A stretch of 64,000 nt of DNA from a virus. Lineage: Duplodnaviria; Caudoviricetes. Below the pieces are notes generated by a model. The model did no database searches, had not been told where the DNA came from, and worked only from the letters and a program-made list of their open reading frames with translations. The stretch lies in IMG/VR virus record IMGVR_UViG_3300015607_004160; one strand, written 5' to 3'. The translations under genes and the position numbers were made by a program. Position 1 is the stretch's first letter. Every line of letters begins with the position of its first letter. Positions 1 through 63,505 of the stretch are shown here, piece after piece.

Positions 1-587
1 TTGAGATAATCACCATAAACTTGATCATACTCATCTTGTGTATAAAATTGATTGTCTATATCCGAAAAGACAACTCTTGTATCTGTGGAGGTTAAAGTAA
101 CGGGAAGTTTTTCTTGTCCATATCCTGGTCCAAATGAACCACCTATATTCATAAGTTCAGTACCACTGATTGACTCTATAAATTTTTTAAATTTCTTTGT
201 TCCTTTTTCGTTTCCCGATATACATTTTTCTTTAAAACATTTTTCGAATCCATCTAATCTATCACATTTGTAATATTTACAATCAGGATAAAATAGAACT
301 ATAAGAAACCAATCGTCTTTTAATTTACTTAGTGATAGGAGGTTTGAATAACCATTGGTATGTTTAATGCTTAAACAATCTGACATATCAATAGTTATCA
401 CATACATTGGATATTCCTTTTTTAAGAAGTTTTCTATATAATTTATATCCTCATCTGTAAAGTGGCAAGAAGATATATTAACAAAATTTTCGTCAAATTG
501 AAAGTGATTGTCATATTCTGCCTCGGTTATTTCTGTGTAGAAGTTGTCATCAATCGATTCAAAATATTTAAATTTTTTAATTCTCAT
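1..587 (-). CDS. Partial hypothetical protein with N-terminal capsid-targeting-like motif and YKCD-family module (runs off window start)
   Basis: Not in the ORF track. Hand translation from ATG 587: MRIKKFKYFES...LSKLKDDWFLIV...YYKCDRLDG...TKKFKKFIESISG..., with no stop before position 1. Confidence 0.8.
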   Translation of the reverse strand, partial: MRIKKFKYFESIDDNFYTEITEAEYDNHFQFDENFVNISSCHFTDEDINYIENFLKKEYPMYVITIDMSDCLSIKHTNGYSNLLSLSKLKDDWFLIVLFYPDCKYYKCDRLDGFEKCFKEKCISGNEKGTKKFKKFIESISGTELMNIGGSFGPGYGQEKLPVTLTSTDTRVVFSDIDNQFYTQDEYDQVYGDYL

Positions 588-1047
588 CTTTTATAGGTAT
601 CTTTTCATAATATTGATCTTGTGATTGTAATGAATATTCATCCTTTTTAATATCATAAACTATATTATATAAATAATTATCTTTTAATTCTATTCTTTCA
701 CCATCTTTTAAAACTATAAAACATGACTCACTTTCAAATTGATTAAAAACAGAGACGATTTCTATACCGACTTTATTCTTTTCATATAGATCACAGATAA
801 CTTTTCTTCCCTCTGAAAGAATATCTTTGATTCTATCAAACGCATCATTCTTAGTCAAGTAAGAAAAATCCTTATAATCATCTTCATTGGACTTATCAAA
901 CATACTTAAGAACCTTTTTTCTACATCATTCAAAGGCTTTCCCTCAGACATCTTATCTAAGATTCTATTTAATTCATCATCCTTAACTGACTCATTCACT
1001 TGACTTATCCAGGTTTCAAAATTCATAATTCGCATTGGTTTCACCAT
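577..1047 (-). CDS. Hypothetical protein (weak N-terminal targeting-like motif)
   Basis: ORF track; MRIMNFETWISQVNES near the N-terminus; TAATATATA upstream on the minus strand (~1055-1063). Confidence 0.7.
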   Translation of the reverse strand: MVKPMRIMNFETWISQVNESVKDDELNRILDKMSEGKPLNDVEKRFLSMFDKSNEDDYKDFSYLTKNDAFDRIKDILSEGRKVICDLYEKNKVGIEIVSVFNQFESESCFIVLKDGERIELKDNYLYNIVYDIKKDEYSLQSQDQYYEKIPIKDEN

Positions 1048-1113
1048 TTTTTATTATATATTAAAAGACAAAGATTATTTTATATATAGTATTATAAATA
1101 TTTACAAAAATAG

Positions 1114-4100
1114 ATGGATAAACAGTTGCTCGCTGCTTTAAGTAATTTATCAATAGCGTTACAAGAAATATCTGATTCCTTAGATAGTATTAATAAGACT
1201 AAGGAAACTTCCAATTCTTCTATTGTTGAAGCATTCAAAAGTTTAGATATTAATGAGCAGCTTAAATCCATTGATGAAGGTGTTAAAAAAATACAAGAGG
1301 ATAATAAACAAATAGTTAAAACACAAAAGCAAATATTATCACAGGTTAGTAAGCCGTCAGCAACAACCAAAGAAAATAGCCTAATAAATACTAAAGATCA
1401 AAAGGGAATTAAAGATGGGGTTAGCTTAATATTGCTAATAGCTGGTGGTGTTTTGGCTATTGGCCTTGCATTTAAACTAATAGGCACTGTCGATTTTAAA
1501 TCGGTAATAGCTTTAAGTTTATCGTTGCCCCTGATAGCATTTGCATTTGAAAAGGTCGCAAAAATCAAGTCTGATATTAAAAGTTTGACAATTGTTAATT
1601 TTGGGTTAATAATGATGGCTGGTACAATGGTCATTGTTTCAAAATTATTAAGTTTTGTAACACCTATTAGTCTTGATAAACTAATTACTACTGTATTGAT
1701 ATCCGGAGCATTTGTATTATTATCAGCATCTATTGGAAAAATATCACAAAATGTTGAAGGAATAAATGTAAGAAATCTTTGGAAGTTGCCACTTGTACTA
1801 CTTGCTGCGTCTGCTGCTATTGCCACATCATCTTGGATATTACAATGGGTTAAACCAGTTGGATTTAATCAATTACTAACAGTTATAATGATTTCAGCGG
1901 CATTTGCTGTTCTATCATTTGGACTTGGTAAACTTGTTAAAGCCATGGATAAAATACTGAAAAATTACGCAGAGGTAGTAGCATTACTACCTTTAGTATT
2001 AGTTGGTGTTTCATTAGCTATAACTGGATCATCTTATATTTTATCTAAAATAGTTCCAATAAGTTTCCCACAGGCATTAACAACTATATTAATAGCCTCA
2101 ACATTTACAATTTTATCATATGGATTACCTAAAGTAGTTGATGCAGTTAGTAAAATTAAGATAAAGGATATTCCAATGATTCCATTAGTTCTAATTGCTA
2201 TGTCGGCTGCTATATTAGGATCATCTTATCTCTTTTCAAAAGTTCAAACTGTTCCATTTGGGACTTTAATAAACATAGCACTTCAATCAATTGCATTAAC
2301 AGTTGTTGCTATTGCAATCGGATTTGCAATGAGTATCTTAGATAAATTAGGAATAAGTCATCAACGGGACGGGCTTCCATCAAAAGCCTTAATGGGTGGG
2401 GTATCAATTGTTATAATTGCAACTACTTTAATGACCTCATCGTTAATAATTTCACTGGGTCAATATTCTGTTTATCCGGATTTAAGTTGGACACTTAATA
2501 TGGCTGCTTCCATGTTAATCTTTGGAGCGGGAATGGCAATTATAGGAGCAAGTACGACTGCGGCCACAGAAGTCCTACCAGCTTTAATTATTGGAGGCAT
2601 TGGTATACTTGTAATAGCAGGAACAATCTTAGCAACAGATGCAATATTATCTAATGGTGAGTATAAAATATACCCTACACTGCCATGGGTATTGGGAGTA
2701 GGGGCATCTTTAACAACATTCGGTTTAGTAATGGCCGCGTCAGCTTTCGGAATAATTGCCTTAGCAATTGGATATTTAAGTATTAGTCTTATTGCAAATT
2801 CTATTGTTAAAGTAGCTAATATTTTAAATGGAGGTGAATATGGAAAATATCCATCCTTATCATGGATTCTTGGAGTAGGCTTATCATTAGGAGCATTTGG
2901 AACAATAATGGTTGCTAGTGGAATTGGTATCATAGCGTTGGGATTAGGATATCTAAGTATTAAAATGATTGCTAATTCAATAGTCGAAACATCACAAATA
3001 TTATCAAATGGTAAATTTACTGGTGGTCCTTCCTTAGGGTGGGCACTCGGAACAAGTGTTTTATTAACAACATTTGGAATGTCTATGATGTTACTTGGTG
3101 CATTTGTGGCTGGTACACTTGGGCTTGGATATGTTGCTTTACTTGCTGGTAAATCAGCACTGAAAGTAATTGCACAATCTATTGTAGATGCGTCATTTAT
3201 ATTATCAAATGGTAATTATAAAGATGGACCAACAAAAGAATGGGCTGAAGGGGTTGCGTTATCAATTGGAGCATTTGCACCAGTATATAAAACATTAACA
3301 TCAAAAGGCGGTGGTGGATCATCACCAGCTAAAATGAAACAAGCTATAGTTACAATATCAGAAGGTATTATTACCGCTGCTCAATTCTTCTCTAAGAATA
3401 CAGTTTCATTTAAAAATGGTCCGCCTGTGGAATGGGCTGAAGGAGTTGGATTATCAATTAGAGCATTTACTCCAGTATTTGAATCATTAGCTAAGAACAA
3501 AAGCTGGTTCAGTAGTGGCCTTGATATGGACGAAATGGTAAATGCAGTTCATGGAATATCACAAGGTATAATTACTTCTGCTGAAATTTTCAATCAAAAT
3601 AGAACCATATTTGGTGGAACTTATCCAAGTGTAGAATGGGCTGAGGGTGTCGGATTAGCTATTAGGGCATTTAATCCAGTTATTGAATATGCAGCTTCAA
3701 TATCAGGAATAACAAGCAATGTTAGTTCTGATTGGTTGTATAAGAATATTACATTCTTTGCGAAAGCAATGGTTGAAACAGCAAATATATTATCTGGTAA
3801 CTATGAAGGATCTAGAGGAAAACCTAATTACAATAATATAATACCAGATAATTATACACAAACATTAACATCATTATATAGTTCATTTTATAAATTAGTT
3901 AGTGATAAAAAAATAGCTAGCCTCGATAGTGATAACTTTGGAGTTTTTTATGCAATGGCTGGATCGATTTCAAATACAAGTATAATTTTAAGTAAAGGAA
4001 ATTATAAATTAATACCATTGGATTATATGACTAACTTAACAAGTAATATAATTCAATATTCTAAATTATTATCTTATTTAAAAGGAACAAATGAATCAGA

Positions 4101-15322: not shown

Positions 15323-15694
15323 ATGAAACATATTAAACATATCAATGAATTATTCGGCCTCAGAAAATTATTTAATAAGGATGAAGAGACTGCAGAAGGT
15401 ATACTTAATAGTATTGATCAAACTACTAAAATAGAATTTAGAGATGATTCTGATGATATTAGTGATATTAAAATTTACCGATTTAATATTGATGAATTTA
15501 ATATTAAAGTTAGTAGTGATTTAAATGAGTTTGTTTCAGAATACTCATTAGAAATAGATGGAATAAAAATGAATTGTAGCAAAAGTATAATCAAAAAGAT
15601 ACTTACAAAATGCTATGAGGTAATAAATAAGGACAATATAGAGCAAGAGGAATATATCAGAAAGGATGCTAAAATACATTTTAAAAATAGATAA
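15323..15694 (+). CDS. Hypothetical protein with N-terminal targeting-like motif
   Basis: MKHIKHINE; TAATATATA just upstream. Confidence 0.8.
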   Translation: MKHIKHINELFGLRKLFNKDEETAEGILNSIDQTTKIEFRDDSDDISDIKIYRFNIDEFNIKVSSDLNEFVSEYSLEIDGIKMNCSKSIIKKILTKCYEVINKDNIEQEEYIRKDAKIHFKNR

Positions 15695-15697: not shown

Positions 15698-18055
15698 ATG
15701 AAACACATAAATAAATTTAAATTATTCAACGAAGCTTTCCTACAAGAGGATAAGAAAAAAGCTATAGATATTATTGTATCATATATAACCAAAAATTCTA
15801 ATGTAGATTTATATGAATACGAAGAAATATGGCATATACAAAAGAAAGACCTATTTTTAAGTGGTCAATTATTTGTTTCATTAAGATCTTCTAAAGCCAT
15901 AAGATTCAATTGGATAGAAAATGATATTAGATCAGAAATTCATAGCATAGATATGTGGACTAGCTTCAAATTTGACGAGAATCCAGAATACACCTTAGAA
16001 TTAGGCCAAAATTCAATAACTAAAATATTACCACAGATATTAAATTTTGTAAAAGATCCATCAATTTTAGTTAAGGAGGAATTAGATATAGAAGAAGGTG
16101 GATACGACCCAAGACAAGAATTAGAAGCAGCAGTTAAAAGATTGGGTAAATTAAGAAGCCCTAAATCAATAGCTTCTCAAGAAAGAAAAATAGAACAGTT
16201 AAAAGCAGCAATTGCTTATGATGAAAAAGCAGAAACAGATAGTGAAAAAATCAATCAACTAGATGATGATTTAAAAATTGATATATTCAAGTCTATTGAG
16301 CTATATACAATTCAAGTAGCAAGAGGAAAATCAAATTCACTAGTTATATCTGGTGATGCAGGTGTTGGTAAGTGTCACGGAAAAGGAACAAAAATATTAA
16401 TGTATGATGGATCAATTAAAAATGTTGAGGATATAGAAGTTGGTGAATTTTTAATGGGAAATGATTCTAAACCAAGAAAAGTATTATCACTTGGCCGTGG
16501 TAAAGATATAATTTATGAAATTAAATCAAAAGGATGGGATAGCTTCACTGTAAATTCGGAGCATATTCTAGTTTTAAGAAATAGAAAAAAATCATCAAAT
16601 AAACCATTTGAAATCTCAGTTAAAGACTTTTTACAAAAAAGTAAAACCTTTCAGGATCAATCACAACTTATTAGAACATCCGTTGAATTTAAAGAAAAAG
16701 AAATAAAGATGGATCCCTATTTAATGGGAATATGGTTAGGTGATGGGGCAAGAACATCACCACATGGAATAGAAACGGCTGATGCTGAGATAGTATCTTT
16801 TTTAGAAGAAAAGGCAAATGATTATAATCTATTACTTAAAAAACATACAAATAAAAAAAGTAAAAGTGATGGGTACTATTTTTCTTCGGGTAGTTTTGGA
16901 AAAGGATTAAAATTAGAAAGAAATGAATTTTTAAATGATTTAAAAGAATATAAACTATACAATTGCGTTGAGAAATTTATACCAAATGATTATTTAATAA
17001 ATTCTACAGATATTAGAAAGAAATTATTAGCTGGTCTAATAGATTCAGATGGATATCAATTTCATAAATCCTATTCAATATGTACAAAATGGGAAAAGTT
17101 AGCTAACCAAATTGTTTTTCTATCAAGATCTCTCGGATTTAAATCACACATATCTATAAAAACTATCAAAGGGAAAGAATATTATAATATTAATATATCT
17201 GGAGACCTATCAGACTTACCAATAAGGTTGGAAAGGAAGAAAAGTGAAAAAAGAAATCAAGTTAAAAATGTACTTAATTCCGGATTTATCATATCTGAAG
17301 TTGGTTATGATGATTACTATGGGTTTGAATTGGATGATAATCATCTATATTTACTTGGAGATTTTACAGTAACACACAACACTCAGACAGTTAAAGATAC
17401 ATTGTCATCATTAGGAATGCAAAAAGATACACACTATTACTTTGCGACAGGCACAGCAACAACTGCTGGATTATATGAATTGTTATTCAAAAATAGACAT
17501 AAATTAACAGTTTTTGATGACTGTGATGCGGTTTTTAAAGAAGCCGAATCGGTAAATATACTTAAAGGTGCATTAGATACATATAAAATTAGAGAAATAT
17601 CTAGTTTAACAAAGGGGAATAAATTTGATTCAGCTGGAATGGATGAGAAGGAAATTCAAGAAACATATGATGCTAGTGGTAAACTTCCGAATAAATTTGA
17701 ATTTACTGGTCAAATAATATTTATTTCAAATTTACCTGAATCTAAATTTGACGATGCTTTACTTTCAAGGGCATTACATGTTGATGTTCATTTAAGTAAA
17801 AAGGAATTATTTGCTAGAATGAGTGAGATTATGAGAAAATTATCCCCAGATGTTACAATGGAAAAAAAGCAAGAAGCTTTAGAATATCTAACATTTGTTA
17901 CGAATAACTATCCAACTAAATTTGATATGAATATTAGAACATTAATTCACTCTATTAATTTAAGAGCGAATAACGAAGAAACTATCAAAATTGGTGATAG
18001 AGAAGAAGCGGTTTGGAAGCTTTTGGTGAAAAAATACCTTGTACGATCTAGATAA
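15698..18055 (+). CDS. AAA-type P-loop ATPase with intein and N-terminal targeting-like motif
   Basis: Walker A GDAGVGK|T is split by an intein; Walker B LTVFDDCD; IIFISN sensor; ALLSR arginine finger; begins MKHINKFKLFNEA. Confidence 0.85.
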   Translation: MKHINKFKLFNEAFLQEDKKKAIDIIVSYITKNSNVDLYEYEEIWHIQKKDLFLSGQLFVSLRSSKAIRFNWIENDIRSEIHSIDMWTSFKFDENPEYTLELGQNSITKILPQILNFVKDPSILVKEELDIEEGGYDPRQELEAAVKRLGKLRSPKSIASQERKIEQLKAAIAYDEKAETDSEKINQLDDDLKIDIFKSIELYTIQVARGKSNSLVISGDAGVGKCHGKGTKILMYDGSIKNVEDIEVGEFLMGNDSKPRKVLSLGRGKDIIYEIKSKGWDSFTVNSEHILVLRNRKKSSNKPFEISVKDFLQKSKTFQDQSQLIRTSVEFKEKEIKMDPYLMGIWLGDGARTSPHGIETADAEIVSFLEEKANDYNLLLKKHTNKKSKSDGYYFSSGSFGKGLKLERNEFLNDLKEYKLYNCVEKFIPNDYLINSTDIRKKLLAGLIDSDGYQFHKSYSICTKWEKLANQIVFLSRSLGFKSHISIKTIKGKEYYNINISGDLSDLPIRLERKKSEKRNQVKNVLNSGFIISEVGYDDYYGFELDDNHLYLLGDFTVTHNTQTVKDTLSSLGMQKDTHYYFATGTATTAGLYELLFKNRHKLTVFDDCDAVFKEAESVNILKGALDTYKIREISSLTKGNKFDSAGMDEKEIQETYDASGKLPNKFEFTGQIIFISNLPESKFDDALLSRALHVDVHLSKKELFARMSEIMRKLSPDVTMEKKQEALEYLTFVTNNYPTKFDMNIRTLIHSINLRANNEETIKIGDREEAVWKLLVKKYLVRSR
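16373..17380 (+). mobile_element. Intein (336 aa) with LAGLIDADG homing endonuclease
   Basis: Starts CHGKGT, contains YLMGIWLGDG and LLAGLIDSDG, ends VTHN followed by Thr as the +1 nucleophile. Confidence 0.92.
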
Positions 18056-18071: not shown

Positions 18072-18185
18072 ATGACAAAAGTTTGTAAAAAGTGCAACAT
18101 AGAGAAGGATATAACTTATTTCTTTAATGATAAGTCAAAAAAAGGTAGTCAAGATCTAGTTGTTAAAATTATTAAATTAAAATGA
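18072..18185 (+). pseudogene. Relic of a zinc-finger-containing homing endonuclease N-terminus
   Basis: MTKVCKKCNIEKDITYFFNDKSKKG...stop after 37 aa; RSSC appears in a shifted frame. Confidence 0.5.
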
Positions 18186-23196: not shown

Positions 23197-23201
23197 AAAT
23201 T

Positions 23202-23555: not shown

Positions 23556-23565
23556 TATATAACCA

Positions 23566-30080: not shown

Positions 30081-30081
30081 T

Positions 30082-47616: not shown

Positions 47617-50600
47617 TTCTTATTTTTAAATTCTGCTATTATTTTATTAACCTTACCATCTAAATCCACATCATTTCTAGTCATTGTAAATCTAGCATCA
47701 ACTAATTTGTTTCTTTGCTTTACATCACCACTTTTTTTATTCTTTTCTGGTGTTGGAACAATTAGGTAATAGATATCAGATATCTCCATGATATAATCTT
47801 TAATACCATTAAAATTATTATTCTTAATATCCTCAACACTTATTGATTTAAATGGAAATTTACCGCCAATTAGAAATCCTTTAGTAGATGCAAATCCAAT
47901 GCTGATCCTAACATCATTTGAATAAGGAATACCATTATTTCTCACATCTTCAATATAATCTGTTTTATAGACCTCTTTATTTTCCGTTTTAGCAGTTTGC
48001 TTTCTGACGTAATCACTAGCAATTGATTGTTTAGGATTATTCTTACTACTCACTTGATATCTGAATAAAACATATGGATCTTTATCACTTCCAGCAGTAA
48101 TAGGATAAATAGTATAAACATTATCGTCTTTAGATACAACCTTTATAATATTTCCTTTTTTGTTTTTTAATCCAGTAGTAAATTGCTCACTAAAAAAAGG
48201 CATGTCTACTGCACCCTCATCATCCTTCGAAATGATTGGATCAAAAGTAGGCGAATCTGGTAGGTTGCCTTGTTGAGCTGTTCCGCCACCACTTCCTTCA
48301 GTATTAAAATATTTTTTAAATATAATAGCTCTATGCTTCTTAAAAGTACCATTATCATTATTTAACAAGTCATTTATAAATGTAAGTAATGTTTTTCCTG
48401 ATCCAGGTGATTTCATTGGAGTGTTTGTGCTAGATTCAGCATCAGAAACAAACTTAGCATTAGCTAATATTCTTCTTAATTGTTTATCTTCTAATATCTT
48501 AGTTATTCCATCTTGCCATTTATTATATGGAAGTTTAGCCGCCCATGGTCCAAAACCAGGAGTACCTTCTGCACTCCACTTAGGTTCACCTTGGCCAATG
48601 TGTTCATATTCTCTCATTGTTTTTAATGATATCTTACCATTAGGACGACCTGATGGAATATAATCAGTTGCATATAATTTATATGCTCTTCCAAAAATGT
48701 TTACAATTTTAATAATATGATCATCATCAGGATTCGATAATTTTATATCAGTTCCTTCTTTCTTTTCAATATCATCTCTTAATTGTTGATCCTCTTTGGT
48801 TACTTTCCATTCTTTTTCTTCATCTTTTTTAAAGAATTTGAACCAAGACTTTTTAACACGATCACTATTATCACTCTCATCTGGAACTTCAGTATTTTGT
48901 GATTCTACTGGCTGTCCTGCTGGTTGTTCTTCATCAGGTTTAGGTTCATCAAGCTTAATATTATCAGGAGCTTCGTCAGCTTCCTCTTTTATTAATATGA
49001 AAGAAGAATAATCTCTAACAATTGATTCTTTTTTAATTGATGGGTACACCTCTTTTATTTTATTAAATGAATTGATGAATAACTTAATATGATTTCCTGC
49101 ACCACCAGCATCACCTTCTGATTTATATGAATTGCCATAAGAACCTAAAAGTCCCATATCTTCAGAAAATGCTAACAAAACTCTACCAAATAATGATATA
49201 GACTTAGCAATATCTGATACAGAGGTTCCCTCAGCTTCAGATATTAGCTCATCCATAGAAATTGGCTTACCAACATTTTGATAGTTTATTACAACTTGTC
49301 TACCAATTTCAAGTATTTTTTTCTTAGCTTCTTTTAATTTATCAGCACCATTTACATCAATTATTGATTCAATATATGGGACGAATTTTGCAATTCCTGA
49401 TTTATTATAGGCATTAACCACTTTATTCCATGCAGATCTAGCTTGTGATTCTTGGTCTCTAAGATTTGCATCTACTTCCTCATTAATAACAGATTCGGTA
49501 GCCATTGGTTGACCATGCATTCTTTTAGTTTCTTCTTTGGCTCTTTTATCAGCATCTACATCATAATCTGGTCTTGTTTCAGTTGAAACCTTTCCAGGTG
49601 TTTTAGTAGCTTCTTTTCCTTTAACTCTATCTAGCTTTGCTTGATATGTTTTAATCTCATTATTATAAAAATTAATTCTTTCCTTATTACCTTTAGCAGT
49701 ATATACAGAAAGTCCTTTTTTAGCTAGTTCTATTTTGGTATTAATTTCCTGTGATGTATTAGTTCTTTGTTGTTGATATTTCTTATCATCAAAAAAAGTA
49801 GATGTTTTACTATCACTAGTTTTTTTAAGCATAGATGGATCAACTGCAACAGTAGATGCGGTATATTTACCGTCTGATCCCATAACAGCTACTGAAACTA
49901 ATCCTTTTTTAATAGGTTCCTTTTTAACATCATCTTTAGTTAAATATTCTTTATCATCACCAATATTAATAACATTATTTAATGATATAACTTTAACTCT
50001 ATTAGTTTTTCCTTCTTTATTAGTATAGGAATATTCATTACCAACTTTTATTTCATCACTAACACCTTTTTCAAATTTAACTGTGTTATTCTTAATATCT
50101 CTATGTATTTTACAAATTGATTGTAATAATAATTTTGAATTGTTATAAAAAATAACTGCTGGATTAGATTTAGCATCATCCGCATTTTCTTCTCCCTCTC
50201 CTTCACCTTCACCATCTATTCCTAATCCTTTTTGAATTTCTAATAAATCATTTTTAAATTTCTTTAGTTTTTCAAGAAGAACCTCCTTGTTTTCTAAATT
50301 AGCTTTTTCTACTTGTGAAATAACATTATCTACTAATCCGATATTTGAAGCATCACCTAAAAGAACTTTTAATTTCTCTTTAACATCTTTCTCACTAGAA
50401 ACTTCTTTATAAATCTCTTCTAACAACATTCTATATGATAAGTTGTTTAGCTTTTTCTTTTCATCATCATTTAAAGAGTAGTCTTCTAATAAAGAATATA
50501 ATTCTTGGTTAAATAATTTGACTAAGTTATTTATTTTAGTATAGTTATATCCAATCTTCATCTTCCTTAATGTTGAATTGATAAGCCTTCCTAATAAAGA

Positions 50601-50711
50601 TCCACCCCATGTTATGTCGTTCTCAAATGCCTCGCTTATCATTGTAGATGATTCAAAGTCAGTTTTAAGATTCTCCATTCTATATTCTTGATGATATTTT
50701 AAATATTTCAT
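47613..50711 (-). CDS. Large (1032 aa) putative internal head protein with multiple x-x-E linkers
   Basis: MKYLKYHQEY...MISEA; internal MATESVINEE, LISEA, IKKESIVRDYSSFILIKEEA. Confidence 0.7.
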   Translation of the reverse strand: MKYLKYHQEYRMENLKTDFESSTMISEAFENDITWGGSLLGRLINSTLRKMKIGYNYTKINNLVKLFNQELYSLLEDYSLNDDEKKKLNNLSYRMLLEEIYKEVSSEKDVKEKLKVLLGDASNIGLVDNVISQVEKANLENKEVLLEKLKKFKNDLLEIQKGLGIDGEGEGEGEENADDAKSNPAVIFYNNSKLLLQSICKIHRDIKNNTVKFEKGVSDEIKVGNEYSYTNKEGKTNRVKVISLNNVINIGDDKEYLTKDDVKKEPIKKGLVSVAVMGSDGKYTASTVAVDPSMLKKTSDSKTSTFFDDKKYQQQRTNTSQEINTKIELAKKGLSVYTAKGNKERINFYNNEIKTYQAKLDRVKGKEATKTPGKVSTETRPDYDVDADKRAKEETKRMHGQPMATESVINEEVDANLRDQESQARSAWNKVVNAYNKSGIAKFVPYIESIIDVNGADKLKEAKKKILEIGRQVVINYQNVGKPISMDELISEAEGTSVSDIAKSISLFGRVLLAFSEDMGLLGSYGNSYKSEGDAGGAGNHIKLFINSFNKIKEVYPSIKKESIVRDYSSFILIKEEADEAPDNIKLDEPKPDEEQPAGQPVESQNTEVPDESDNSDRVKKSWFKFFKKDEEKEWKVTKEDQQLRDDIEKKEGTDIKLSNPDDDHIIKIVNIFGRAYKLYATDYIPSGRPNGKISLKTMREYEHIGQGEPKWSAEGTPGFGPWAAKLPYNKWQDGITKILEDKQLRRILANAKFVSDAESSTNTPMKSPGSGKTLLTFINDLLNNDNGTFKKHRAIIFKKYFNTEGSGGGTAQQGNLPDSPTFDPIISKDDEGAVDMPFFSEQFTTGLKNKKGNIIKVVSKDDNVYTIYPITAGSDKDPYVLFRYQVSSKNNPKQSIASDYVRKQTAKTENKEVYKTDYIEDVRNNGIPYSNDVRISIGFASTKGFLIGGKFPFKSISVEDIKNNNFNGIKDYIMEISDIYYLIVPTPEKNKKSGDVKQRNKLVDARFTMTRNDVDLDGKVNKIIAEFKNKK

Positions 50712-50809
50712 TTTAAAAACTGTAGATTTATTTTGATTATATATTAAATTTATTAAGCATAAAATAAATAAACTGGATTTTAATATATATGTAAAATTGA
50801 GTAATCAAT

Positions 50810-51262
50810 ATGAATATAAAAAATTACAAATCTTTTAACGAGAGCCTGTTGGGTGGACTATCATCTAAAGTTAGTAAAGCATTTAATAAACTTAAAGTGA
50901 TTGGAGGATTTGGTGATGGTAATATTGTTAAATTAAAAAAATGGGGAATCTCAACAAAGAAAGTATCTGAAACTTATTACCAAATAATACATGATAATAA
51001 AATTATTGCTGAAGTAAGAGTTACTGGGGAAGGATATAAACCTATATTTAAATTATCAATTTATTTCTATGATAGTGAAATAGAGAATACAAAAAACCTT
51101 GAGCTAAATAAAAAATTTGATGGTCAAAAAGAACAACCCTATGGAAAAGCAAGTAAAGATTTCTATACCACAGAATCCGCAATTGATTTTCTGATCTCTT
51201 TTTGGTCCACTAAAACTAACTCTGGTAAATCTAAGAATCCTCAATTTAAGATTAATTTATAA
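50810..51262 (+). CDS. Targeting-motif protein
   Basis: MNIKNYKSFNES. Confidence 0.75.
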   Translation: MNIKNYKSFNESLLGGLSSKVSKAFNKLKVIGGFGDGNIVKLKKWGISTKKVSETYYQIIHDNKIIAEVRVTGEGYKPIFKLSIYFYDSEIENTKNLELNKKFDGQKEQPYGKASKDFYTTESAIDFLISFWSTKTNSGKSKNPQFKINL

Positions 51263-54342: not shown

Positions 54343-56499
54343 ATGGCAGTTAAAGAGGTTCAAGAGAAAAAATTTATCTTCAATAGTAAAGTAGTTGAAG
54401 AAATAACTAATAAAATAAATGATGGATTTGTAATCAAAAGGTTTCAAAACCCATGGTTTAAAAATGAAGTTGGTGTTAGAAGAGCCGGCATTACATTTGC
54501 GATAACAGATGCTGAGTTTCAAGAGTATATCAGATGTAAGGTTGATATACATTATTTTGCCGAAAAATATTGTCGAGTTAAAACTGAAGACGGTAGTGTT
54601 GGTAATATTACACTAAGGGATTACCAAAGAGATATATTAGATTTATACTATGGTGGTAGATTTAGTATTCTTTGTGGTTCAAGACAGATAGGTAAGACCA
54701 TATCGGCCGCAATCACAATGCTACACTTTATTACATTTAATAATGATAAAAATATCATGATTGTTGCGAATATTGCTAATACAGCAATAGAAATTATTGA
54801 TAAGATAAAATCTATTTATGTTCAACTACCATTCTTTTTAAAAGTAGGAATCAAAAACTGGAACCAAAGATCTGTTATATTTGATAATGGATGTAGAATT
54901 AAAAGCTCTGCTAGAACAAAGACACCAGCGATTGGTTTTACAATTGACTTCTTATATATGGACGAATTTGCACACATTCCACCAAATATTATTGAGGCAT
55001 ACTATACAGCAGCTTTTCCAACGGTGTCTGCCATTGAAAACTCTAAGATCATTATTACATCAACCCCGAACGGTATGAACCTATTCTATAAGCTATTAAC
55101 AGATGCAGAAAGACCTGGTGGAGATCCACAGAAAAATAACTATAGAGCGATGCGTGTTTATTGGTATCAAGTACCTGGTAGATTTGTAACGTATTATAGA
55201 CTGAATCAATTTAAAATGGCTGAACTTGGTATAACAAAAGATGATATTTATAATCAAGTTATAAGCGAGTTTGGTGACCTAACTAAAATAGATGTTAAAT
55301 TCAATCCCGATTTACAAAAAGACATTATATCTGTTTTTAATAATGATGTTTGTACAGATGCTATGGCAAAATCATTTCAGTTTATAGATGCAAAAGGATT
55401 ACAAATACCAATTCAAATGCTAGCAGAAGTAACAACATGGAAAGAAGAAGCTATCAAAGATATTGGTGGTGAGGATGCATTTAATCAAGAATATGGATTG
55501 AGATTTATTAATTCAAGTAGGTCGTTATTAACTGAGAGTACTATTGAACATTTATTAACTGGTAAGAAAAATTATAAATTTGAAGAGATATATGAATTTG
55601 ATAGAAAATTAAGATTCTCTTATTCTGATTTAAAATGGGTAGATGATGATAATTTGTTTATGCCAATTCAAAGAAAGCAGATTAAAGGTATAATGACGGT
55701 TGATATATCAGAAGGACTGGGTCAGGACTATTCAGTTATTAATATTTTTAAAATTGCTCCTAAGGCACGAGAAATAATAGAGATGCAAAAGCATACTTAT
55801 AGTACAATGAGTGATTTCTTTTGCTTAGTTCAAATAGGAATGTTTAGGTCAAATCTTGTATCAGTAAAACAACTAGCTGAACTATTCTATATGATTGCGT
55901 TTGAATACTTTCATTACGATAATTTTAAAGTTGTATTAGAAATAAATAGTTACGGAAATGAATTTTTAGCACATTTACCACATGTCTTTGAGGGGAATAA
56001 TAACTATGGATCTTCTATATTTTTTAGATATAAACATAAAGCAGACGCAGAAGAGGAAAAAATAGGACTAAAAGTTGGTGACAATAAAAATATGTTGGTC
56101 AAAGATTATCAAGATGCTATGGATAAGAAAAGATTTGTTATCAACAATGAAGATAATGTTAGAGAAATAACAACCTTTGTTAAACATATTACACCAGCTG
56201 GTAATGTTAGATATGCCGCAGATATTGGAAATGATGATACAGTAATGACATTAGTTGATACTTCTAGTATATTCAATAAGTATGAATATAAACAAATGGT
56301 TGAAGATTATGCACCATCTATTTTAGATGCTGAATCACTTAGCTATTTTAATGCAATATTAAAAGATGTTGAATATAAAGAAACCGCTGATTATTCATCT
56401 ATTATAAACGTCAATAGGCAAAGAAGGATGATGTCTCAATATCAAAATCGAGTTTATAACAGTGGTAATGAATTTTTTGGTGGAAATTATAAACTATAA
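54343..56499 (+). CDS. terL: Terminase large subunit (T4 gp17-like)
   Basis: LRDYQ, SRQIGKT (Walker A), FLYMDEFAH (Walker B), ITSTPNG, FNQEY, VDISEGLGQDYS, NDDTVM. Confidence 0.96.
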   Translation: MAVKEVQEKKFIFNSKVVEEITNKINDGFVIKRFQNPWFKNEVGVRRAGITFAITDAEFQEYIRCKVDIHYFAEKYCRVKTEDGSVGNITLRDYQRDILDLYYGGRFSILCGSRQIGKTISAAITMLHFITFNNDKNIMIVANIANTAIEIIDKIKSIYVQLPFFLKVGIKNWNQRSVIFDNGCRIKSSARTKTPAIGFTIDFLYMDEFAHIPPNIIEAYYTAAFPTVSAIENSKIIITSTPNGMNLFYKLLTDAERPGGDPQKNNYRAMRVYWYQVPGRFVTYYRLNQFKMAELGITKDDIYNQVISEFGDLTKIDVKFNPDLQKDIISVFNNDVCTDAMAKSFQFIDAKGLQIPIQMLAEVTTWKEEAIKDIGGEDAFNQEYGLRFINSSRSLLTESTIEHLLTGKKNYKFEEIYEFDRKLRFSYSDLKWVDDDNLFMPIQRKQIKGIMTVDISEGLGQDYSVINIFKIAPKAREIIEMQKHTYSTMSDFFCLVQIGMFRSNLVSVKQLAELFYMIAFEYFHYDNFKVVLEINSYGNEFLAHLPHVFEGNNNYGSSIFFRYKHKADAEEEKIGLKVGDNKNMLVKDYQDAMDKKRFVINNEDNVREITTFVKHITPAGNVRYAADIGNDDTVMTLVDTSSIFNKYEYKQMVEDYAPSILDAESLSYFNAILKDVEYKETADYSSIINVNRQRRMMSQYQNRVYNSGNEFFGGNYKL

Positions 56500-56500: not shown

Positions 56501-56782
56501 TTACGCAAGTTCCATTGTGGCACTAAGGTTAGCACCTTTTAATTTCTTATACATTTCAGAAATTGTTTCCTTATCACCTCTTTTAACATCACATTTACCG
56601 ACAAAATGGACAAGGTGAGCACATTGTGAAGCTTGTTCATACTCATGACCACATATCTTCATTAGGCATTCAATTACCCAATCAAATGTGTTGAAATCGT
56701 CATTATGTAGAATAAGTAAGTAAGGTTGACCCAACTTTTCTTCTAGCTCAGTAGAAACTTGTTCTTTTGTTATTGTTGCCAT
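56501..56782 (-). CDS. clpS: ATP-dependent Clp protease adaptor ClpS
   Basis: LILHNDDFNTFDWVIECL...AHLVHFVGKCDVK. Confidence 0.9.
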   Translation of the reverse strand: MATITKEQVSTELEEKLGQPYLLILHNDDFNTFDWVIECLMKICGHEYEQASQCAHLVHFVGKCDVKRGDKETISEMYKKLKGANLSATMELA

Positions 56783-58831: not shown

Positions 58832-59458
58832 ATGAAACACATAAGAAAATTTGAATCTTATTCTAACAAAAGAAAGCTACAGGAAATCATTAAGGAAAGT
58901 GTAATGATTGTTGATGATATATACAGAGTCAATGTTACTGCTGATATTCCTCAATCTTTATTAAACGCTTATATTAAAAAGGTTAAAGACTCATTAGATA
59001 AAAATGCTAGACAATTCTACTCAGATGTTCAATTAGCTGAAGAAATTACAAAATACGTACTTCAACAAGGATTAAATATCGATAAAATAGATCCATCTGC
59101 CTTATTTGGTGGTCAACCACAAGGTCAAGCACAGGGTCAACCACAAGTTCAAGTTCAAGGTCAACCTGTTCAAGGTCAACCTGTTCAAGGTCAAGCACAA
59201 GCTCAACCTGTTCAAGGTCAAGCACAACCTCAAGCACAAGCTCAACCTGTTCAAGGTCAAGCAGTTCAAGGTCAAGCACAAGCCCAACCTCAAGCCCAAC
59301 CTCAAGCACAAGCTCAACCTCAAGCACAAGCTCAACCTCAAGCACAAGCTCAACCTGTTCAAGGTCAAGCAGTTCAAGGTCAAGCACAAGGTCAAGCACA
59401 AGGTCAAGGTGAATTTGAGGAAGTAGAAGATGAAGATGAAGAAGAATTACCACTTTAA
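58832..59458 (+). CDS. Targeting-motif protein with Gln-rich repeat and acidic tail
   Basis: MKHIRKFESY...IIKES; (QGQ/QAQ/QPV)n; EFEEVEDEDEEELPL. Confidence 0.8.
   Translation: MKHIRKFESYSNKRKLQEIIKESVMIVDDIYRVNVTADIPQSLLNAYIKKVKDSLDKNARQFYSDVQLAEEITKYVLQQGLNIDKIDPSALFGGQPQGQAQGQPQVQVQGQPVQGQPVQGQAQAQPVQGQAQPQAQAQPVQGQAVQGQAQAQPQAQPQAQAQPQAQAQPQAQAQPVQGQAVQGQAQGQAQGQGEFEEVEDEDEEELPL
59112..59410 (+). repeat. Coding tandem repeat (CAAGGT/CAAGCA/CAACCT/GTT units)
   Basis: CAAGCACAAGCTCAACCT and CAAGGTCAACCTGTT units are reiterated. Confidence 0.9.
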
Positions 59459-59623: not shown

Positions 59624-59648
59624 ATTTATTTACTTTAATATATACATT

Positions 59649-60083
59649 ATGAAATATCTTAATCTTTTTAATAATTTTAAATATTTATTTGAAAGCTTTA
59701 ATAGCATAGAAGAAATAGAAGACTATTTTCTCGAATTAAGTGATCATAAAAATGATGATCTACCTATTAAAGTAGAAGTTACTAATCATAATGTAAATAA
59801 ATCTGTTAAGAATATTAAAGGATTTAATAAATCTTCTAAATTTAAATCGATTAAAGGATATAAAATTACTATCTTATTTGATCACTATGATCAATTATAT
59901 GTTAAGAAAAAAGTTGAAACCGCAATAAATAGATTAAAAAGTAGTTATAATATTCACTATAATCAAATATCTAAAAAAGGAAATGGAAACACCTATAGAG
60001 AAGTTCCCATTAATGGCACTAATAGGGTAGCTTATGTATCTGATCCACTATGGAAACAAATAATAACTATTTCTCCTAAATAA
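59649..60083 (+). CDS. Targeting-motif protein, IEDYFLEL family
   Basis: Start re-called to ATG 59649, just after TAATATATA; MKYLNLFNNFKYLFES...EIEDYFLELSD. Confidence 0.75.
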   Translation: MKYLNLFNNFKYLFESFNSIEEIEDYFLELSDHKNDDLPIKVEVTNHNVNKSVKNIKGFNKSSKFKSIKGYKITILFDHYDQLYVKKKVETAINRLKSSYNIHYNQISKKGNGNTYREVPINGTNRVAYVSDPLWKQIITISPK

Positions 60084-60093: not shown

Positions 60094-60711
60094 ATGATAT
60101 ACATAAAGACATACGAGGAAATAAATAATGGATCTATATTAATTATAGTAGATGTTCAAAAGTCATTCAAAAAATTCTTCACTGATAATTATTTAAAGCA
60201 ATTAAATGAGTATTGTAAAAAATTTGAAACTGTTTATCAAATATTTGATAACCATGTAGAGGGGAAGAATGTAGATACTGATTATCTATATGATAAAAAT
60301 CCAGATAAACCAAATAATAATGACTTATATGTATTTAATAATCAAAAAGATATTATAGAAAAAAGATATAACTATAATGTAGATGCTGACTTTTATAAAA
60401 AAATATTATCACCAGATATATATCAAGATGTTAAAAATAAAGAAAGTAAGGGTTTATTAAGAAGAGGAAATTACTTTTTAACAAATGAAGGAACAATCAT
60501 TGTTTATATCGGAAACAAACATGTTTGGTATCATTGTCCTAAAAAACTCTATGATTTATTTTTAAGACTAAGAAATAAAGAAGTCATAATGGTTGGCGGA
60601 TCTGACCAAGAGTGCTTTTTAGATGTTGAAACAACTGCTAAAGCATTGGGTGTATCAATTAAAAGAAATTTTGATTATATCTATAGTGCAACAAATTGTC
60701 CTATTAAATGA
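60094..60711 (+). CDS. Isochorismatase/nicotinamidase-like cysteine hydrolase with targeting-like motif
   Basis: ILIIVDVQ, EKRY, VGGSDQEC (D-K-C triad); begins MIYIKTYEE. Confidence 0.7.
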   Translation: MIYIKTYEEINNGSILIIVDVQKSFKKFFTDNYLKQLNEYCKKFETVYQIFDNHVEGKNVDTDYLYDKNPDKPNNNDLYVFNNQKDIIEKRYNYNVDADFYKKILSPDIYQDVKNKESKGLLRRGNYFLTNEGTIIVYIGNKHVWYHCPKKLYDLFLRLRNKEVIMVGGSDQECFLDVETTAKALGVSIKRNFDYIYSATNCPIK

Positions 60712-60847
60712 AATATTTAAAATTATTTGAAGCCAAATATTATAAGATTCATGTGAATCAACTACCAAGCTGTCTCCAAAGTTACACAGACCTGTCCAAT
60801 TTGAAGGTGTATTACAATTTTTAAAAGACTATGTGATTTTTAAATAG
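60708..60847 (+). pseudogene. Collapsed relic of a YKCDQ-family gene
   Basis: MKYLKLFEA...stop at 60824; a shifted frame carries VQFEGVLQFLKD, matching the family C-terminus (DQIDGLLNFI). Confidence 0.5.
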
Positions 60848-61154
60848 TAAATCCGGTTCTTGACTTATCCAAATTATTCACTAACTCAACTAACACATCA
60901 CCATGACAAGTTTTTGGTTTACACCAACATCCTAGAGTTTTACCTTTTAATTCATGTAAATCATTTAATAGATATTTACCTTCACCATTGGTAATCCATT
61001 CACGATAAGCTTCAATTGCTTCTTTTCTAGTTGGTAAAATATATGTCGCCCTTGTTCCTTCTCTATATGAAAAAGGGCAACCCCATTTTGTTGTTCTATC
61101 AATTAAAACATCGTAGTCTTCTTTTTTGTGGTGAACTACTTTACACTTTTCCAT
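60840..61154 (-). CDS. DUF4326 family protein
   Basis: KVVH...IDRTTKWGCPF...AIEAY...LKGKTLGCWCKPKTCHGDVL; likely start at ATG 61154. Confidence 0.85.
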   Translation of the reverse strand: MEKCKVVHHKKEDYDVLIDRTTKWGCPFSYREGTRATYILPTRKEAIEAYREWITNGEGKYLLNDLHELKGKTLGCWCKPKTCHGDVLVELVNNLDKSRTGFTI

Positions 61155-62620
61155 ATCCATTTTTGCATTCCGCAATCAAAAATTTTATAGTATCCTTGTT
61201 CTGACATTATTTGAATTTCTGTTTTATTTGGGTCAAATCCATCTTTAATTAGTCTATCTTTTCTATAGTTAAATCTATGCTTTCTAATTCCATTAACAAC
61301 ATAATAGTAATTAGGACGAGACGTGTGTGATAATTTAAATCCCAACTTTAAGTACATATCACCATTAGATCTACTCAAATCAGAATAACTTATAATTTCT
61401 TTTGATGGATAGTTATTTAAAAAATATTTAAAAAGTTTAGAAGACCCTCCAACAACACTTGTATTTAACTTATTACAAAATCTTAGTAACTCATATGATC
61501 CATCTTTACTTTTTTGCCCTAATGATTTCCTAAGATTCCCAAATGTCATTAGACTAACCAACTCCTCCTTGAAAAATAATCCGATTTTATACTTTGATCC
61601 AATGAACCCCTGAATGTGATTTTTTGTTAGAAACTCTCTAACTATTTTATTATCAACTACCTCTCTAATATCACATTTTCTAGCAAATATTTTGTTATTA
61701 GTTTTACCAATTTTATTTAATATCATAGACTTCACAATATCTTGTTTATATATCCAATCATCCTCCCATATATGAAATATATTTATACCATTCTTTGCAA
61801 ATAATAGTGTTTTATTTAGATGGTAGTTTTTTTCCTTAAATACTTCAGAATGCCAATATAATCCATTAAATTCAAATCCGATTTTTTTATCAGGTAGATA
61901 AATATCAAGTTCTCTATTTCCAATTTTATAATTAGATATGAAATCTATGCCAGCATCGGATATAATTTTAGAAATGTTTTTTTCCAAATGTGAACTTTTA
62001 AGATTATTTAACTGATTACAATTTATACAAATATCATGTTCATTCTTTATTCTAAGTAAATATGTTGTATAATTTATTTCATATACATTATTACACTTAT
62101 CACATAGTATACTCATTACTCTATTTTCATCTATGCTTATTAGATTTATAGATTTGTTATTATACTCAATAATAGTTTTTTGCTTTTTTGTGTTTGATAT
62201 TTTATCTTTTATGTATGATAATTTTGATATATTATCTATATTATATTTTTCACTTAATGTGTTTTTTATTTTATTTTTGATAGATAACATATCAAATGTA
62301 TATTTGACACCATATTTAGACATCATACTTTTTTCTCTTAATATAGATGTCTTATCAATAAATTCTTGATCCGAATTTTTACATTTATTAGAACAGTAAA
62401 TTGAATATGTGTTATTGAAAAATCCAACCTTATTTTTACAAGCTTTACAAGTTGGTATAGAATCAATATTATGCAAATAGTTATATACCTTTTGCTTAAA
62501 TGGAACTAAATCCTTAGTATAATTTATTATTTGATTATAAAGGTCTGGATATCTTTTTGATATTATATTCTCCCTTCTATTGGCAAAATTTAAAGACTCA
62601 AGTAAAATGTGATAATCCAT
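61136..62620 (-). CDS. Free-standing homing-type endonuclease, paralog of 37328..38902
   Basis: CKAC...YCSNKC; KYGV; ELDIYLP...FEFNGLYWHS...IWEDDW; ARKC...YELLRFC...FDCG. Confidence 0.75.
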   Translation of the reverse strand: MDYHILLESLNFANRRENIISKRYPDLYNQIINYTKDLVPFKQKVYNYLHNIDSIPTCKACKNKVGFFNNTYSIYCSNKCKNSDQEFIDKTSILREKSMMSKYGVKYTFDMLSIKNKIKNTLSEKYNIDNISKLSYIKDKISNTKKQKTIIEYNNKSINLISIDENRVMSILCDKCNNVYEINYTTYLLRIKNEHDICINCNQLNNLKSSHLEKNISKIISDAGIDFISNYKIGNRELDIYLPDKKIGFEFNGLYWHSEVFKEKNYHLNKTLLFAKNGINIFHIWEDDWIYKQDIVKSMILNKIGKTNNKIFARKCDIREVVDNKIVREFLTKNHIQGFIGSKYKIGLFFKEELVSLMTFGNLRKSLGQKSKDGSYELLRFCNKLNTSVVGGSSKLFKYFLNNYPSKEIISYSDLSRSNGDMYLKLGFKLSHTSRPNYYYVVNGIRKHRFNYRKDRLIKDGFDPNKTEIQIMSEQGYYKIFDCGMQKWIWKSVK

Positions 62621-62631
62621 ATCACTATATA

Positions 62632-62997
62632 TTATAAAGAGTGTAGTCCCTGTCCATCATTTGACGATTCAATACTAATAACCTTAATTAAATTCTCGTT
62701 ATCTCCTTTCTTTTTATAAATTTCATTAAAACCCTTTGCTAGTCCACGTTTAAAAACCTCAGTAAAGTATGCGAAGGCGTTATCACTTTTTTCTTCATTG
62801 AAGTTATACCAGTTACCGAACATATCTAGTAAACCACTTTGGTAGCAATCCATTTTATCATCATTATTCCAATATCTCATTTTTTTGATGGTTCTCTTGG
62901 CTAAGATTTCTAACATTAATTTAGATTTATTTGTTAGTTTGCCTTGTGCTTTTGATACGACAATTTCTGCGTATAAATCCCGATTGTGAAGATACAT
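62632..62997 (-). CDS. gp55: Late-transcription sigma factor (T4 gp55-like)
   Basis: YLHNRDL...DDKMDCYQSG...NFNEEKSDNAFAYFTEV matches the gp55 YVNNxxL...NFDPxKSxNPFAYFTQ pattern. Confidence 0.85.
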   Translation of the reverse strand: MYLHNRDLYAEIVVSKAQGKLTNKSKLMLEILAKRTIKKMRYWNNDDKMDCYQSGLLDMFGNWYNFNEEKSDNAFAYFTEVFKRGLAKGFNEIYKKKGDNENLIKVISIESSNDGQGLHSL

Positions 62998-63058
62998 TTA
63001 CATAATATTATTTTTAGAGTGTTTTAATTATATTTTATATTTATATAATTAAATAAGT

Positions 63059-63505
63059 TTAGTTTATTACTAAAATATGCCATCGATAAACAGATATCCA
63101 AATATCTACTCGGTATTTAGAATCTCCATTTTCAAAATATCCCTCATGTTCATATGTCCAATTAACTTTAAACTCATATCCAAGTTTATTTAATCTAGAG
63201 TGATTTATTCTATTAGTTAGTTCATTTACCTGATCATCAAAGAATTCTCCTTTTCGTATCACATTCGTCAAGAAATTGGTATTTTTCCTAAATAAATATT
63301 TGGTTTTTTTTGGTTCTAACTTAAAAGTATATTTACTAATTGAACGGGTGTCATGCTTGGATGAACTTGGTGAGACGATGTATTCTTTTTCTAATAAATT
63401 CCATTCATCAAATATACCTTCTATTATAAGAGCATCTTCAATTTCTTCTTTTTCTTCTTCCTCGGACTTTTCTTGATAATTTTCAAATAACTTCAGATAT
63501 TTCAT
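63059..63505 (-). CDS. Targeting-motif protein
   Basis: MKYLKLFENY; TAATATATA upstream. Confidence 0.75.
   Translation of the reverse strand: MKYLKLFENYQEKSEEEEKEEIEDALIIEGIFDEWNLLEKEYIVSPSSSKHDTRSISKYTFKLEPKKTKYLFRKNTNFLTNVIRKGEFFDDQVNELTNRINHSRLNKLGYEFKVNWTYEHEGYFENGDSKYRVDIWISVYRWHILVIN

Follow-up and report, generated by a model that had tools for sequence, protein, structure and literature searches.

A modular N-terminal tag on unrelated late proteins of uncultivated huge phages: a possible capsid address

In phage T4, the internal proteins IPI, IPII, and IPIII and the protein Alt are targeted by a capsid-targeting sequence (CTS) of 10–20 residues, which the prohead protease gp21 removes (Mullaney and Black 1996 in PMC3012670, PMC5694885). 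The T4 internal proteins amount to about 1000 molecules per head and form a diverse anti-restriction set with the CTS alone in common (PMC3012670, PMC5694885), and the T4 scaffold is cut into short peptides (PMC5694885). In phiKZ, 201phi2-1, and SPN3US, N-terminal propeptides, mostly of more than 100 residues, are cut at A/S/G-x-E in few paralogous proteins, and 8 of about 50 head proteins of SPN3US are processed (PMC5694885). Here, a short N-terminal tag is described that recurs on otherwise unrelated proteins in a stretch of 64,000 nucleotides (64 kb; hereafter, the window) of the virus record IMGVR_UViG_3300015607_004160 (Caudoviricetes) and in related genomes. It is very probably a portable linear motif, acting at the protein level and read by a common late-phase partner. 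A sequence-only reading of the window had listed 29 such starts and likened the peptide to the T4 CTS. In the PVC-type extracellular contractile injection systems, a disordered N-terminal segment suffices to load unrelated payloads into a phage-like particle; these signals, ~50 residues long, direct the payload into the lumen of the tail tube, in a particle devoid of DNA.

All 29 starts are ATGs followed by the peptides as quoted. The tag consensus is M-[KR]-[YH]-[IL]-[KR]-x-[FY]-(0–4 residues)-E, an amphipathic stretch of 8–13 residues connected by a variable linker to the folded body. Its strict form (regular expression M[KR][YH][ILV][KRN].[FY][EKN]) is found at 15 of the 2535 ATGs in the window, namely at 14 called gene starts and at the start of a 38-aa open reading frame (ORF) at 60708. 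From the strict matches, a tag profile was built and iterated three times, with scores of ≥10 bits regarded as strong, 8–10 as moderate, and <8 as weak. The tag is confined to extreme N-termini: at ≥10 bits, the profile recognizes 371 N-termini vs 10 of 14,423 internal-Met control windows. The bodies behind the tags are indeed unrelated, as had been proposed, since the 29 bodies of the window fall into 27 BLASTP clusters and the 142 tagged bodies of the window and LR745206 into 126. Likewise, the sheath, the large terminase (TerL), the gp47-like phosphoesterase, the helicase/Eco57I-type methylase pair, and ClpS lack the tag, in agreement with the sequence-only reading.

By its sequence, the window, with a G+C content of 25–32%, comes from an uncultivated ~0.6-Mb phage. 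Its TerL shares 65% identity with those of the uncultivated ~0.64-Mb phage genomes LR745206.1 and LR756502.1, and 42% with those of LR756504.1 and the 735-kb LR756501.1; the best cultured match is Tenacibaculum phage PTm1 (33% identity). LR745206.1, a complete genome, served as a proxy for the genome of the window, and LR756501.1 and PTm1 were also compared whole. At thresholds of ≥10 and ≥8 bits, the profile recovers 23 and 25 of the 70 genes called in the window, 127 and 143 of 907 in LR745206, 63 and 82 of 996 in LR756501 (where the variant MIKKFKLFE is in use), and 0 and 1 of 295 in PTm1. Two window genes are moderate and three are weak matches (Table 1). The estimate that over a third of the proteins are tagged therefore holds within the window (25–30 of about 71) but not genome-wide, the share in LR745206.1 being 14–16%.

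A low G+C content makes K, I, L, F, Y, and N common, and the sequence-only reading had itself named AT bias as an alternative. Chance or AT-rich composition is nevertheless refuted by the controls and retains hardly any probability. When the residues of each protein are resampled, 0.0005 strict N-termini are expected vs 14 observed, LR756504 contains 27 pattern matches vs 0 for controls in which the pattern is read backwards, and PTm1, with the same G+C content, has 0–1 tagged proteins. The exact DNA pattern occurs at no fewer than 119 places in IMG/VR, often several per large contig, as compared with 23 in 596 Gb of bacterial and archaeal genomes. Since it is this rare in cellular genomes, no host-type start bias is involved. 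The codon usage described below leads to the same result.

Tagged genes belong to a distinct promoter class. The dominant upstream word, TAATATATA, has its first base 13–15 or 26–38 nt 5' of the ATG. In LR745206, it is located upstream of the operon for the protease-scaffold protein and the major capsid protein (MCP), of the portal gene, and of the sheath operon; within the window, the word stands before the sheath operon, TerL, and the gene for a 2155-aa protein. Because these are head and tail genes, TAATATATA is read as a putative late promoter. Among the operons of LR745206, tagged genes are distributed 93 late to 7 early (TAnnTTTG type) vs 270 to 288 for untagged genes (odds ratio 14, p = 6e-19), and 25 of 25 tagged genes of the window are in late operons by promoter class. 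The same word at 13-nt spacing also precedes untagged genes (23566, 36515-, 37328, 52118, and 62620-). With TAATATATA at 13 nt, transcription of T4-late-like geometry would begin on the AUG or right beside it, and late mRNAs with a very short leader or none may be common.

The signal is read as protein, given that codon use in the tag is genome-like, that tagged genes whose start codons overlap the stop codons of their neighbours within an operon (27464-30624) have no promoter of their own, and that untagged genes share the promoter. Synonymous choice follows genome usage (for Leu4, TTA 48, CTA 13, TTG 6, CTT 4, and CTG 1), and the substitutions are conservative (K/R, Y/H, I/L, and F/Y). An expression signal working through the RNA or the nascent chain, be it a translation ramp or a property of leaderless late mRNAs, would be compatible with the promoter motif 13 nt before many ATGs, which perhaps leaves late mRNAs leaderless, and with the very AT-rich tag codons. 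However, such a signal is most improbable. In addition to the genome-like codon choice and the untagged genes with the same promoter and 13-nt spacing, the MCP and the sheath, which are the most abundant late proteins, carry no tag, and the conservation extends to the Phe-Glu at residues 7–12 and tolerates insertions.

The clearest view of the tag as an exchangeable unit is provided by a small protein encoded next to the capsid gene in relatives. A capsid-protein search found 222 IMG/VR stretches, and 80 loci were kept; in most of them, the gene following the MCP encodes an NFACT-R protein of ~128 aa (Pfam E = 1.5e-17). From a reference locus (L085) and 31 related loci, 32 unique orthologues were obtained, 30 of which are in the alignment (A2; 56–79% identity to the L085 reference). 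They carry every tag variant seen elsewhere, including MKYLKYFE, MKHLKQFE, MIKKYNYFFE, MRLKKYSQFNE, MKHINNFKLYLE, and MRNLKKFNNFLKE, with lengths of 8–13 residues, and each variant in the alignment closes with an invariant Glu, with [SG]KKDKFP next in the sequence. As they are exchanged among orthologues, the variants are interchangeable versions of one signal, with Glu as its conserved boundary. In the 30082 family, one homologue similarly has MIKTFLLYCES where the others have MKYLKLFED. Among 294 distinct tags, position P3 is F in 30%, L in 19%, I in 15%, and Y in 9% (73% together), P2 is F/N/Y, P1 is E, and P1' is S/N/E/A/G/D in 76%. The hydrophobic moment of residues 2–11 is 0.48 vs 0.30 for untagged N-termini (p = 1e-24).

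Structural models place the tag outside the fold. The protein encoded at 60094-60711 has 1072 homologues (~205 aa), and 118 of the 120 among the homologues listed begin with a form of the tag. Residue-class conservation in this family is 0.85 for residues 1–10, 0.41 for the linker (residues 11–14), and 0.85 for the body. In its AlphaFold2 model, the body has a mean pLDDT of 87.7, and residues 1–11 (pLDDT 38) make no contacts. The body adopts an isochorismatase/nicotinamidase fold (49 entries with Z values of 8.7–10.8, the next entry having 5.9), and the solved chains of the isochorismatase fold start at the point where the tag ends. In the model of the 30082-30624 protein, residues 1–11 (pLDDT 38, i.e., <50) likewise lie outside a folded body. 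The tag does not correspond to a Sec, Tat, or lipoprotein signal peptide, as it contains no hydrophobic run and is followed by an acidic stretch; an 18-residue apolar run anywhere in the chain is present in 0.9% of tagged proteins. The tag is modular and detachable, and it is selected as protein.

These observations bear on a further explanation, in which the tag is inherited baggage: a cassette of promoter plus start, copied or recombined before new coding sequences, whose peptide has little or no function. Many tagged genes do have TAATATATA at a fixed 13–15 nt 5' of the ATG, and the 38-aa ORF at 60708 resembles a tag left on very little body. Moreover, tagged genes are the faster-turnover, accessory part of the genome: 28% of the tagged window genes have a homologue in LR745206 vs 58% of the untagged ones (p = 0.02). 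Neutral baggage, however, would decay, so the selective upkeep of the tag speaks against this explanation, which we regard as improbable. The tag is retained in the 60094 homologues and conserved like the fold while the linker drifts, synonymous sites are free to vary while amino-acid classes are kept, the length variants all retain the terminal Glu, and promoterless genes inside the 27464-30624 operon are tagged as well.

Of the readings considered, the most probable is that the partner reading the tag is the prohead core and that the tag is clipped after Glu; judging from the comparisons given here, the probability of this capsid loading is close to even, on the lower side. In a clade of uncultivated phages of roughly 0.6–0.74 Mb, the tag is carried by about 130 mostly orphan, acidic, fast-turnover accessory proteins per genome, 25–30 of them in the window, made from the putative late (virion-gene) promoter. 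For these proteins, we infer a binding partner, encapsidation, cleavage, and injection, as follows. The tag would dock on the assembling prohead core, namely the protease-scaffold fusion protein, and the cargo would be enclosed upon closure of the gp23-like shell. A T4-type prohead protease would then clip the tag after the invariant Glu, and the cargo would exit with the DNA at the next infection. The T4 capsid-targeting logic would thereby operate on some forty times more proteins than the three internal proteins of T4. Under capsid loading, one could understand why tagged genes are late, why the tag has a Glu boundary and resembles the T4 CTS, and why it occurs together with a T4-type head module; the tagged genes behind the MCP, the chimera with the MCP arm, and the variable accessory cargo would be explained as well.

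Relatives have a head module that appears to be of the T4 type. The MCP of LR745206 belongs to the gp23 family (Pfam Gp23, E = 7e-26), and its profile matches T4 gp23 (E = 8e-4). Directly 5' of this MCP, a 707-aa ORF shows a weak N-terminal match to the T4 prohead protease family. Its middle consists of at least 10 tandem 14-residue repeats of the form Y-S-E-Y-[LIV]-A-E-N-L-D-K-N-I, followed by an acidic tract, and LR756501 has the same arrangement. The repeat core YSEY[LIV]AE resembles the T4 CTS core YQEFIAE. A mimicry of the scaffold repeat (YSEYIAEN) by the tag was considered and dropped for the main variant, as the tag profile misses the repeats; the rare variant MKIRNFSEFITEA alone resembles the repeat, and by eye also the T4 peptide MKTYQEFIAEA. 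A separate 207-aa protein of LR756501 (619760-620383) has three scaffold-type repeats toward its C-terminus, which may offer another route into the core.

Tagged genes are associated with the MCP in relatives. A tagged gene directly follows the MCP in 35 of 69 related loci, and in L085, five consecutive tag-like starts, read by eye, are located downstream of it. The N-terminal region of the MCP contains an invariant I42-N43-E44-N45, a candidate maturation site. An attempt to map the T4 gp23 maturation site onto the MCP failed, since phmmer gave no match and the profile aligned the C-terminal half alone. In LR745206.1, an 84-aa ORF at 93266-93520(+) is made up of the tag MRYLKPYKKFIE and, behind it, a copied MCP N-arm segment (MCP residues 48–85, 38 aa with 58% identity), which in the MCP is located just downstream of I-N-E-N. 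Short ORFs resembling pieces of the MCP, the propeptide region included, are also scattered in LR756501.1 (276342-276932(-), 542326-542892(+), and 145891-146127(+)).

The likeness to the T4 CTS comprises the position at the extreme N-terminus, the short length (8–13 residues for the tag and 10–20 for T4), and the occurrence on unrelated, fast-evolving accessory proteins. The hydrophobic moments are similar (0.48 for the tag vs 0.47–0.51 for T4 internal proteins), and both peptides end in hydrophobic-x-Glu, an ending that in the tag is compatible with the prohead-protease site (L/I-x-E in T4). The repeated [LIV]-x-E of the scaffold corresponds to the cleavage rule of T4 gp21, the specificity of the protease of the tagged phages being taken from the [LIV]-A-E scaffold repeats alone. 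The start of T4 IPI (MKTFKEF) scores 8.4–9.9 bits on the tag profile, i.e., above the 8-bit mark. In contrast to T4, the protease is fused to the scaffold, and about 130 genes per genome are tagged vs three internal proteins and Alt. With the phiKZ-type phages, the candidate system would share many head-loaded proteins and the removal of N-terminal segments after Glu, and paralogues of those phages may share identical first 15 residues (PMC5694885); their propeptides are long, however, and there is no short universal tag on a hundred unrelated proteins. Literature searches, run on the tag strings and on the concept in huge phages, yielded no publication describing the tag.

Several points weigh against capsid loading. 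The tagged bodies are acidic (median pI 4.86 vs 5.54, p = 5e-9; 74% below pI 5.5), whereas T4 internal proteins are basic and DNA-associated, and the MCP, the portal, and the protease-scaffold protein are themselves untagged. The protease is assigned on weak grounds (Peptidase_S77, E = 1e-4 to 2e-3, below the Pfam cut-off), and the protease-scaffold profile gave no match among solved structures. T4 IPII (2.2–2.3 bits) and IPIII (2.5–4.3 bits), with the start MKTYQEFIAE, fail the tag profile. A load of about 130 cargo species per genome would be unprecedented and would exceed the roughly 50 head proteins of SPN3US more than twofold (PMC5694885). Among cultured phages, no tag was found in PTm1 with the N-terminal tag family, nor in PAU and MaF61 with the strict motif; PTm1 being untagged, its virion proteome is uninformative here. 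In addition, the head module was read in relatives, that of the window's genome lying outside the window, and the tag, unlike the T4 CTS, is known from sequence. A complex prediction for the protease-scaffold protein (A3) and the tagged NFACT-R protein (A2) scored 0.00, which is evidence neither way. Of the CTS reading proposed earlier, the modular N-terminal protein tag like that of T4 and its late class are thus borne out, and the acidic cargo and the untagged MCP, portal, and protease-scaffold protein do not fit. By analogy, the tag would work like a CTS, and it is a candidate member of the T4-type CTS class.

The same results are equally consistent with a real docking tag whose reader is something other than the prohead core, so that the late proteins act unpackaged in the late cell, which we consider unlikely, although a serious possibility. 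The N-terminal confinement, the protein-level selection, the modularity, the disorder, and the late class fit equally well, and an acidic cargo of very many species is more easily reconciled with a role in the cytoplasm than with being packed alongside DNA. The reader could be, for example, an assembly chaperone or assembly site, a component of the tail or baseplate, a complex in the membrane or in lysis, or a turnover system, ClpS being encoded by the phage. A C-terminal tag on other proteins of the same genome suggests a more general sorting system. On the other hand, no candidate reader emerged from the analysis. Nor does this alternative offer an obvious reason why the tag closes with an invariant Glu that comes after a hydrophobic residue, why tagged genes lie directly behind the MCP, or why a copy of the MCP N-arm is tagged. 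Methionine aminopeptidase (MetAP) leaves Met in place when K or R follows, and an N-degron route via ClpS would therefore need an extra cut.

The C-terminal peptide, R-[DE]-x-K-[IL]-x-x-[IL], is common to three genes of the window that lack the N-terminal tag. One of them encodes a protein with a riboflavin-kinase domain, and one is preceded by the host-type TAnnTTTG motif. The ClpS gene is adjoined by a gene for a HAD_SAK_1 phosphatase-like protein (57015-57515-).

As for the cargo, searches of Pfam and PHROGs with the tagged window proteins remained almost entirely blank, and about 9 of 127 tagged proteins have a Pfam family, all different except for two NUDIX proteins. The few recognizable bodies are small enzymes and comprise, besides these two, a fusion of a 2H/Acb1-like domain with a DEDD exonuclease, an M15 peptidase, a TOPRIM protein, a winged-helix protein, and NFACT-R; in the window, they are a SAM methyltransferase, the nicotinamidase-fold hydrolase, and the intein-bearing protein. 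The 2H-exonuclease fusion is a candidate degrader of signalling nucleotides. In the 60094 family, Asp20, Cys174, and several Lys are invariant, a pattern known from cysteine hydrolases, and the protein may have a role in NAD or nicotinamide metabolism. In the 15698-18055 protein, the intein is composed of a Hint domain (residues 226–301) and a LAGLIDADG homing endonuclease (residues 428–503), and the C-extein matches solely viral hypothetical proteins (phrog_1250). The paralogues 18182, 18619, and 30082 were considered as 2H phosphoesterases on a weak HVSL match and rejected, as they have the conserved motif YYKCDQIDGLLNF and their model gave no clear fold match. Similarly, the tagged protein with a PHROG match to "DNA primase" proved to be no replicative primase; it is a stand-alone TOPRIM-like protein of 193 aa, encoded in a late operon.

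Table 1. Tagged genes, promoter-like sites, and other features of the window, followed by genes of related genomes mentioned in the text (score, bits on the tag profile).
Position	Strand	Feature	Peptide	Score	Remark
3-587	-	Tagged partial ORF at window edge	MRIKKFKYFES		Long variant; by eye
15323-15694	+	Weak tag	MKHIKHINELF	6.7	TAATATATA begins 15 nt 5' of ATG
15698-18055	+	Tagged 785-aa protein	MKHINKFKLFNEA	19.5	Intein-interrupted
18182-18622	+	Tagged gene	MNYIKKYKTFES	18.1	Paralogue of 18619 and 30082
18619-19950	+	Tagged gene	MKHIREFSLFES	16.9	Tag at the second ATG of the ORF
20182-20739	+	Tagged SAM-dependent methyltransferase	MRYIKNYKTFEA	15.3	
20755-21498	+	Tagged gene	MKKIKLFED	14.7	
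25836-26432	+	Tagged gene	MRNIKLFKEF	15.0	Opens a run of 11 consecutive tagged genes
26438-26659	+	Tagged gene	MKHLKKFED	17.2	
26678-27118	+	Tagged gene	MRHIKLFENF	24.0	
27119-27463	+	Tagged gene	MKIRRFNEG	12.1	LR745206 orthologue untagged
27464-27838	+	Tagged gene	MKYIKTFEN	17.2	
27835-28173	+	Tagged gene	MKYLKLFEAF	20.7	
28170-28463	+	Tagged gene	MKYLKLFES	14.8	
28460-29551	+	Tagged gene	MKYLKLFENF	22.6	
29544-30080	+	Moderate tag	MIKTFLQYNEA	9.9	
30082-30624	+	Tagged gene	MKYLKLFEE	16.6	
31815-32084	+	Tagged gene	MKHINKFNE	16.6	TAATATATA begins 13 nt 5' of ATG
32097-33020	+	Tagged gene, T4-like variant	MKIRNFSEFITEA	10.5	
33347-34207	-	Moderate tag	MRYLLELNEF	8.8	
34204-34842	-	Tagged gene	MKYLKIFEAY	15.5	TAATATATA begins 13 nt 5' of ATG
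34874-35686	+	Weak variant	MEIKNFLSFTES	7.4	TAATATATA begins 14 nt 5' of ATG
47050-47616	-	Tagged gene	MIKKYSDFVRE	12.0	Sheath operon, between the genes for the 1032-aa protein and the sheath
47613-50711	-	Weak tag on 1032-aa protein	MKYLKYHQEY	6.7	First gene of the sheath operon
50810-51262	+	Tagged gene	MNIKNYKSFNES	17.3	
58832-59458	+	Tagged gene	MKHIRKFES	19.6	
59649-60083	+	Tagged gene	MKYLNLFNNF	12.9	
60094-60711	+	Tagged isochorismatase/nicotinamidase-fold hydrolase	MIYIKTYEE	14.9	
60708-60824	+	38-aa ORF with perfect tag	MKYLKLFEA		Mini-gene or remnant; absent from the sequence-only list
63059-63505	-	Tagged gene	MKYLKLFENY	18.3	TAATATATA begins 13 nt 5' of ATG
31802-31810 (+), 34847-34855 (-), 59636-59644 (+), 63510-63518 (-)		Promoter-like sites, examples	TAATATATA		22 in the window
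34847-34868		Divergent TAATATATA pair			Each starts 13-14 nt 5' of a tagged ATG (34842-, 34874+)
50738-50789		Divergent TAATATATA pair			50738-50746 (-) heads the sheath operon; 50781-50789 (+) heads tagged gene 50810
21580-25167		Helicase/Eco57I-type methylase pair			
30625-31749	-	gp47-like phosphoesterase			
33017-33328, 38919-39551, 42933-43121	-	Genes with C-terminal peptide	LRDIKLGKILS, VRDIKLDYVLNK, VRESKIEKIIS		
37328-38902 (+), 61136-62620 (-)		Two paralogous DUF7487 + MTES_1575 nuclease-domain proteins			TAATATATA begins 14-16 nt 5' of each ATG
43213-46986	-	Long tail sheath			
54343-56499		T4-type TerL			
56501-56782	-	ClpS adaptor, phage-encoded			Pfam E=7e-17
LR745206.1 198546-200669 (L014); LR756501.1 73913-76336; L085:7826-9916		Protease-scaffold fusion			
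L085:11801-12184 (+); LR745206.1 202508-202897		Stand-alone NFACT-R protein			Ribosome-quality-control type, RNA-binding
LR745206.1 448257-449573	-	Tagged 2H phosphoesterase + DEDD 3'-5' exonuclease			Pfam 2_5_RNA_ligase2; weak Acb1 anti-CBASS match

Even with another reader, a disordered motif on 14–16% of the genes of a phage, in one promoter class, constitutes a previously undescribed protein-sorting system. If the tag is a capsid address, this one motif would be enough to pick out, from sequence, the proteins that a clade of the largest known phages injects, namely about 130 per genome, mostly without a known family, across hundreds of metagenomic contigs. A T4 mechanism known for three or four proteins would then extend to one-seventh of a genome, and it would indicate where to look for new counter-defence proteins. 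As a tentative extension, with a chance distinctly short of even, the megaphages of this clade may pre-load their capsids with a hundred or more small accessory enzymes via a single protease-clipped address of 8–13 residues. An interchangeable arsenal would thus enter the cell with the DNA, ahead of any phage gene expression, and the candidate counter-defence cargo would include the Acb1-like 2H-exonuclease fusion, the NUDIX hydrolases, and the nicotinamidase-fold hydrolase. The tag would in that case be a handle to list injected effectors in metagenomes and to load foreign proteins into such capsids.

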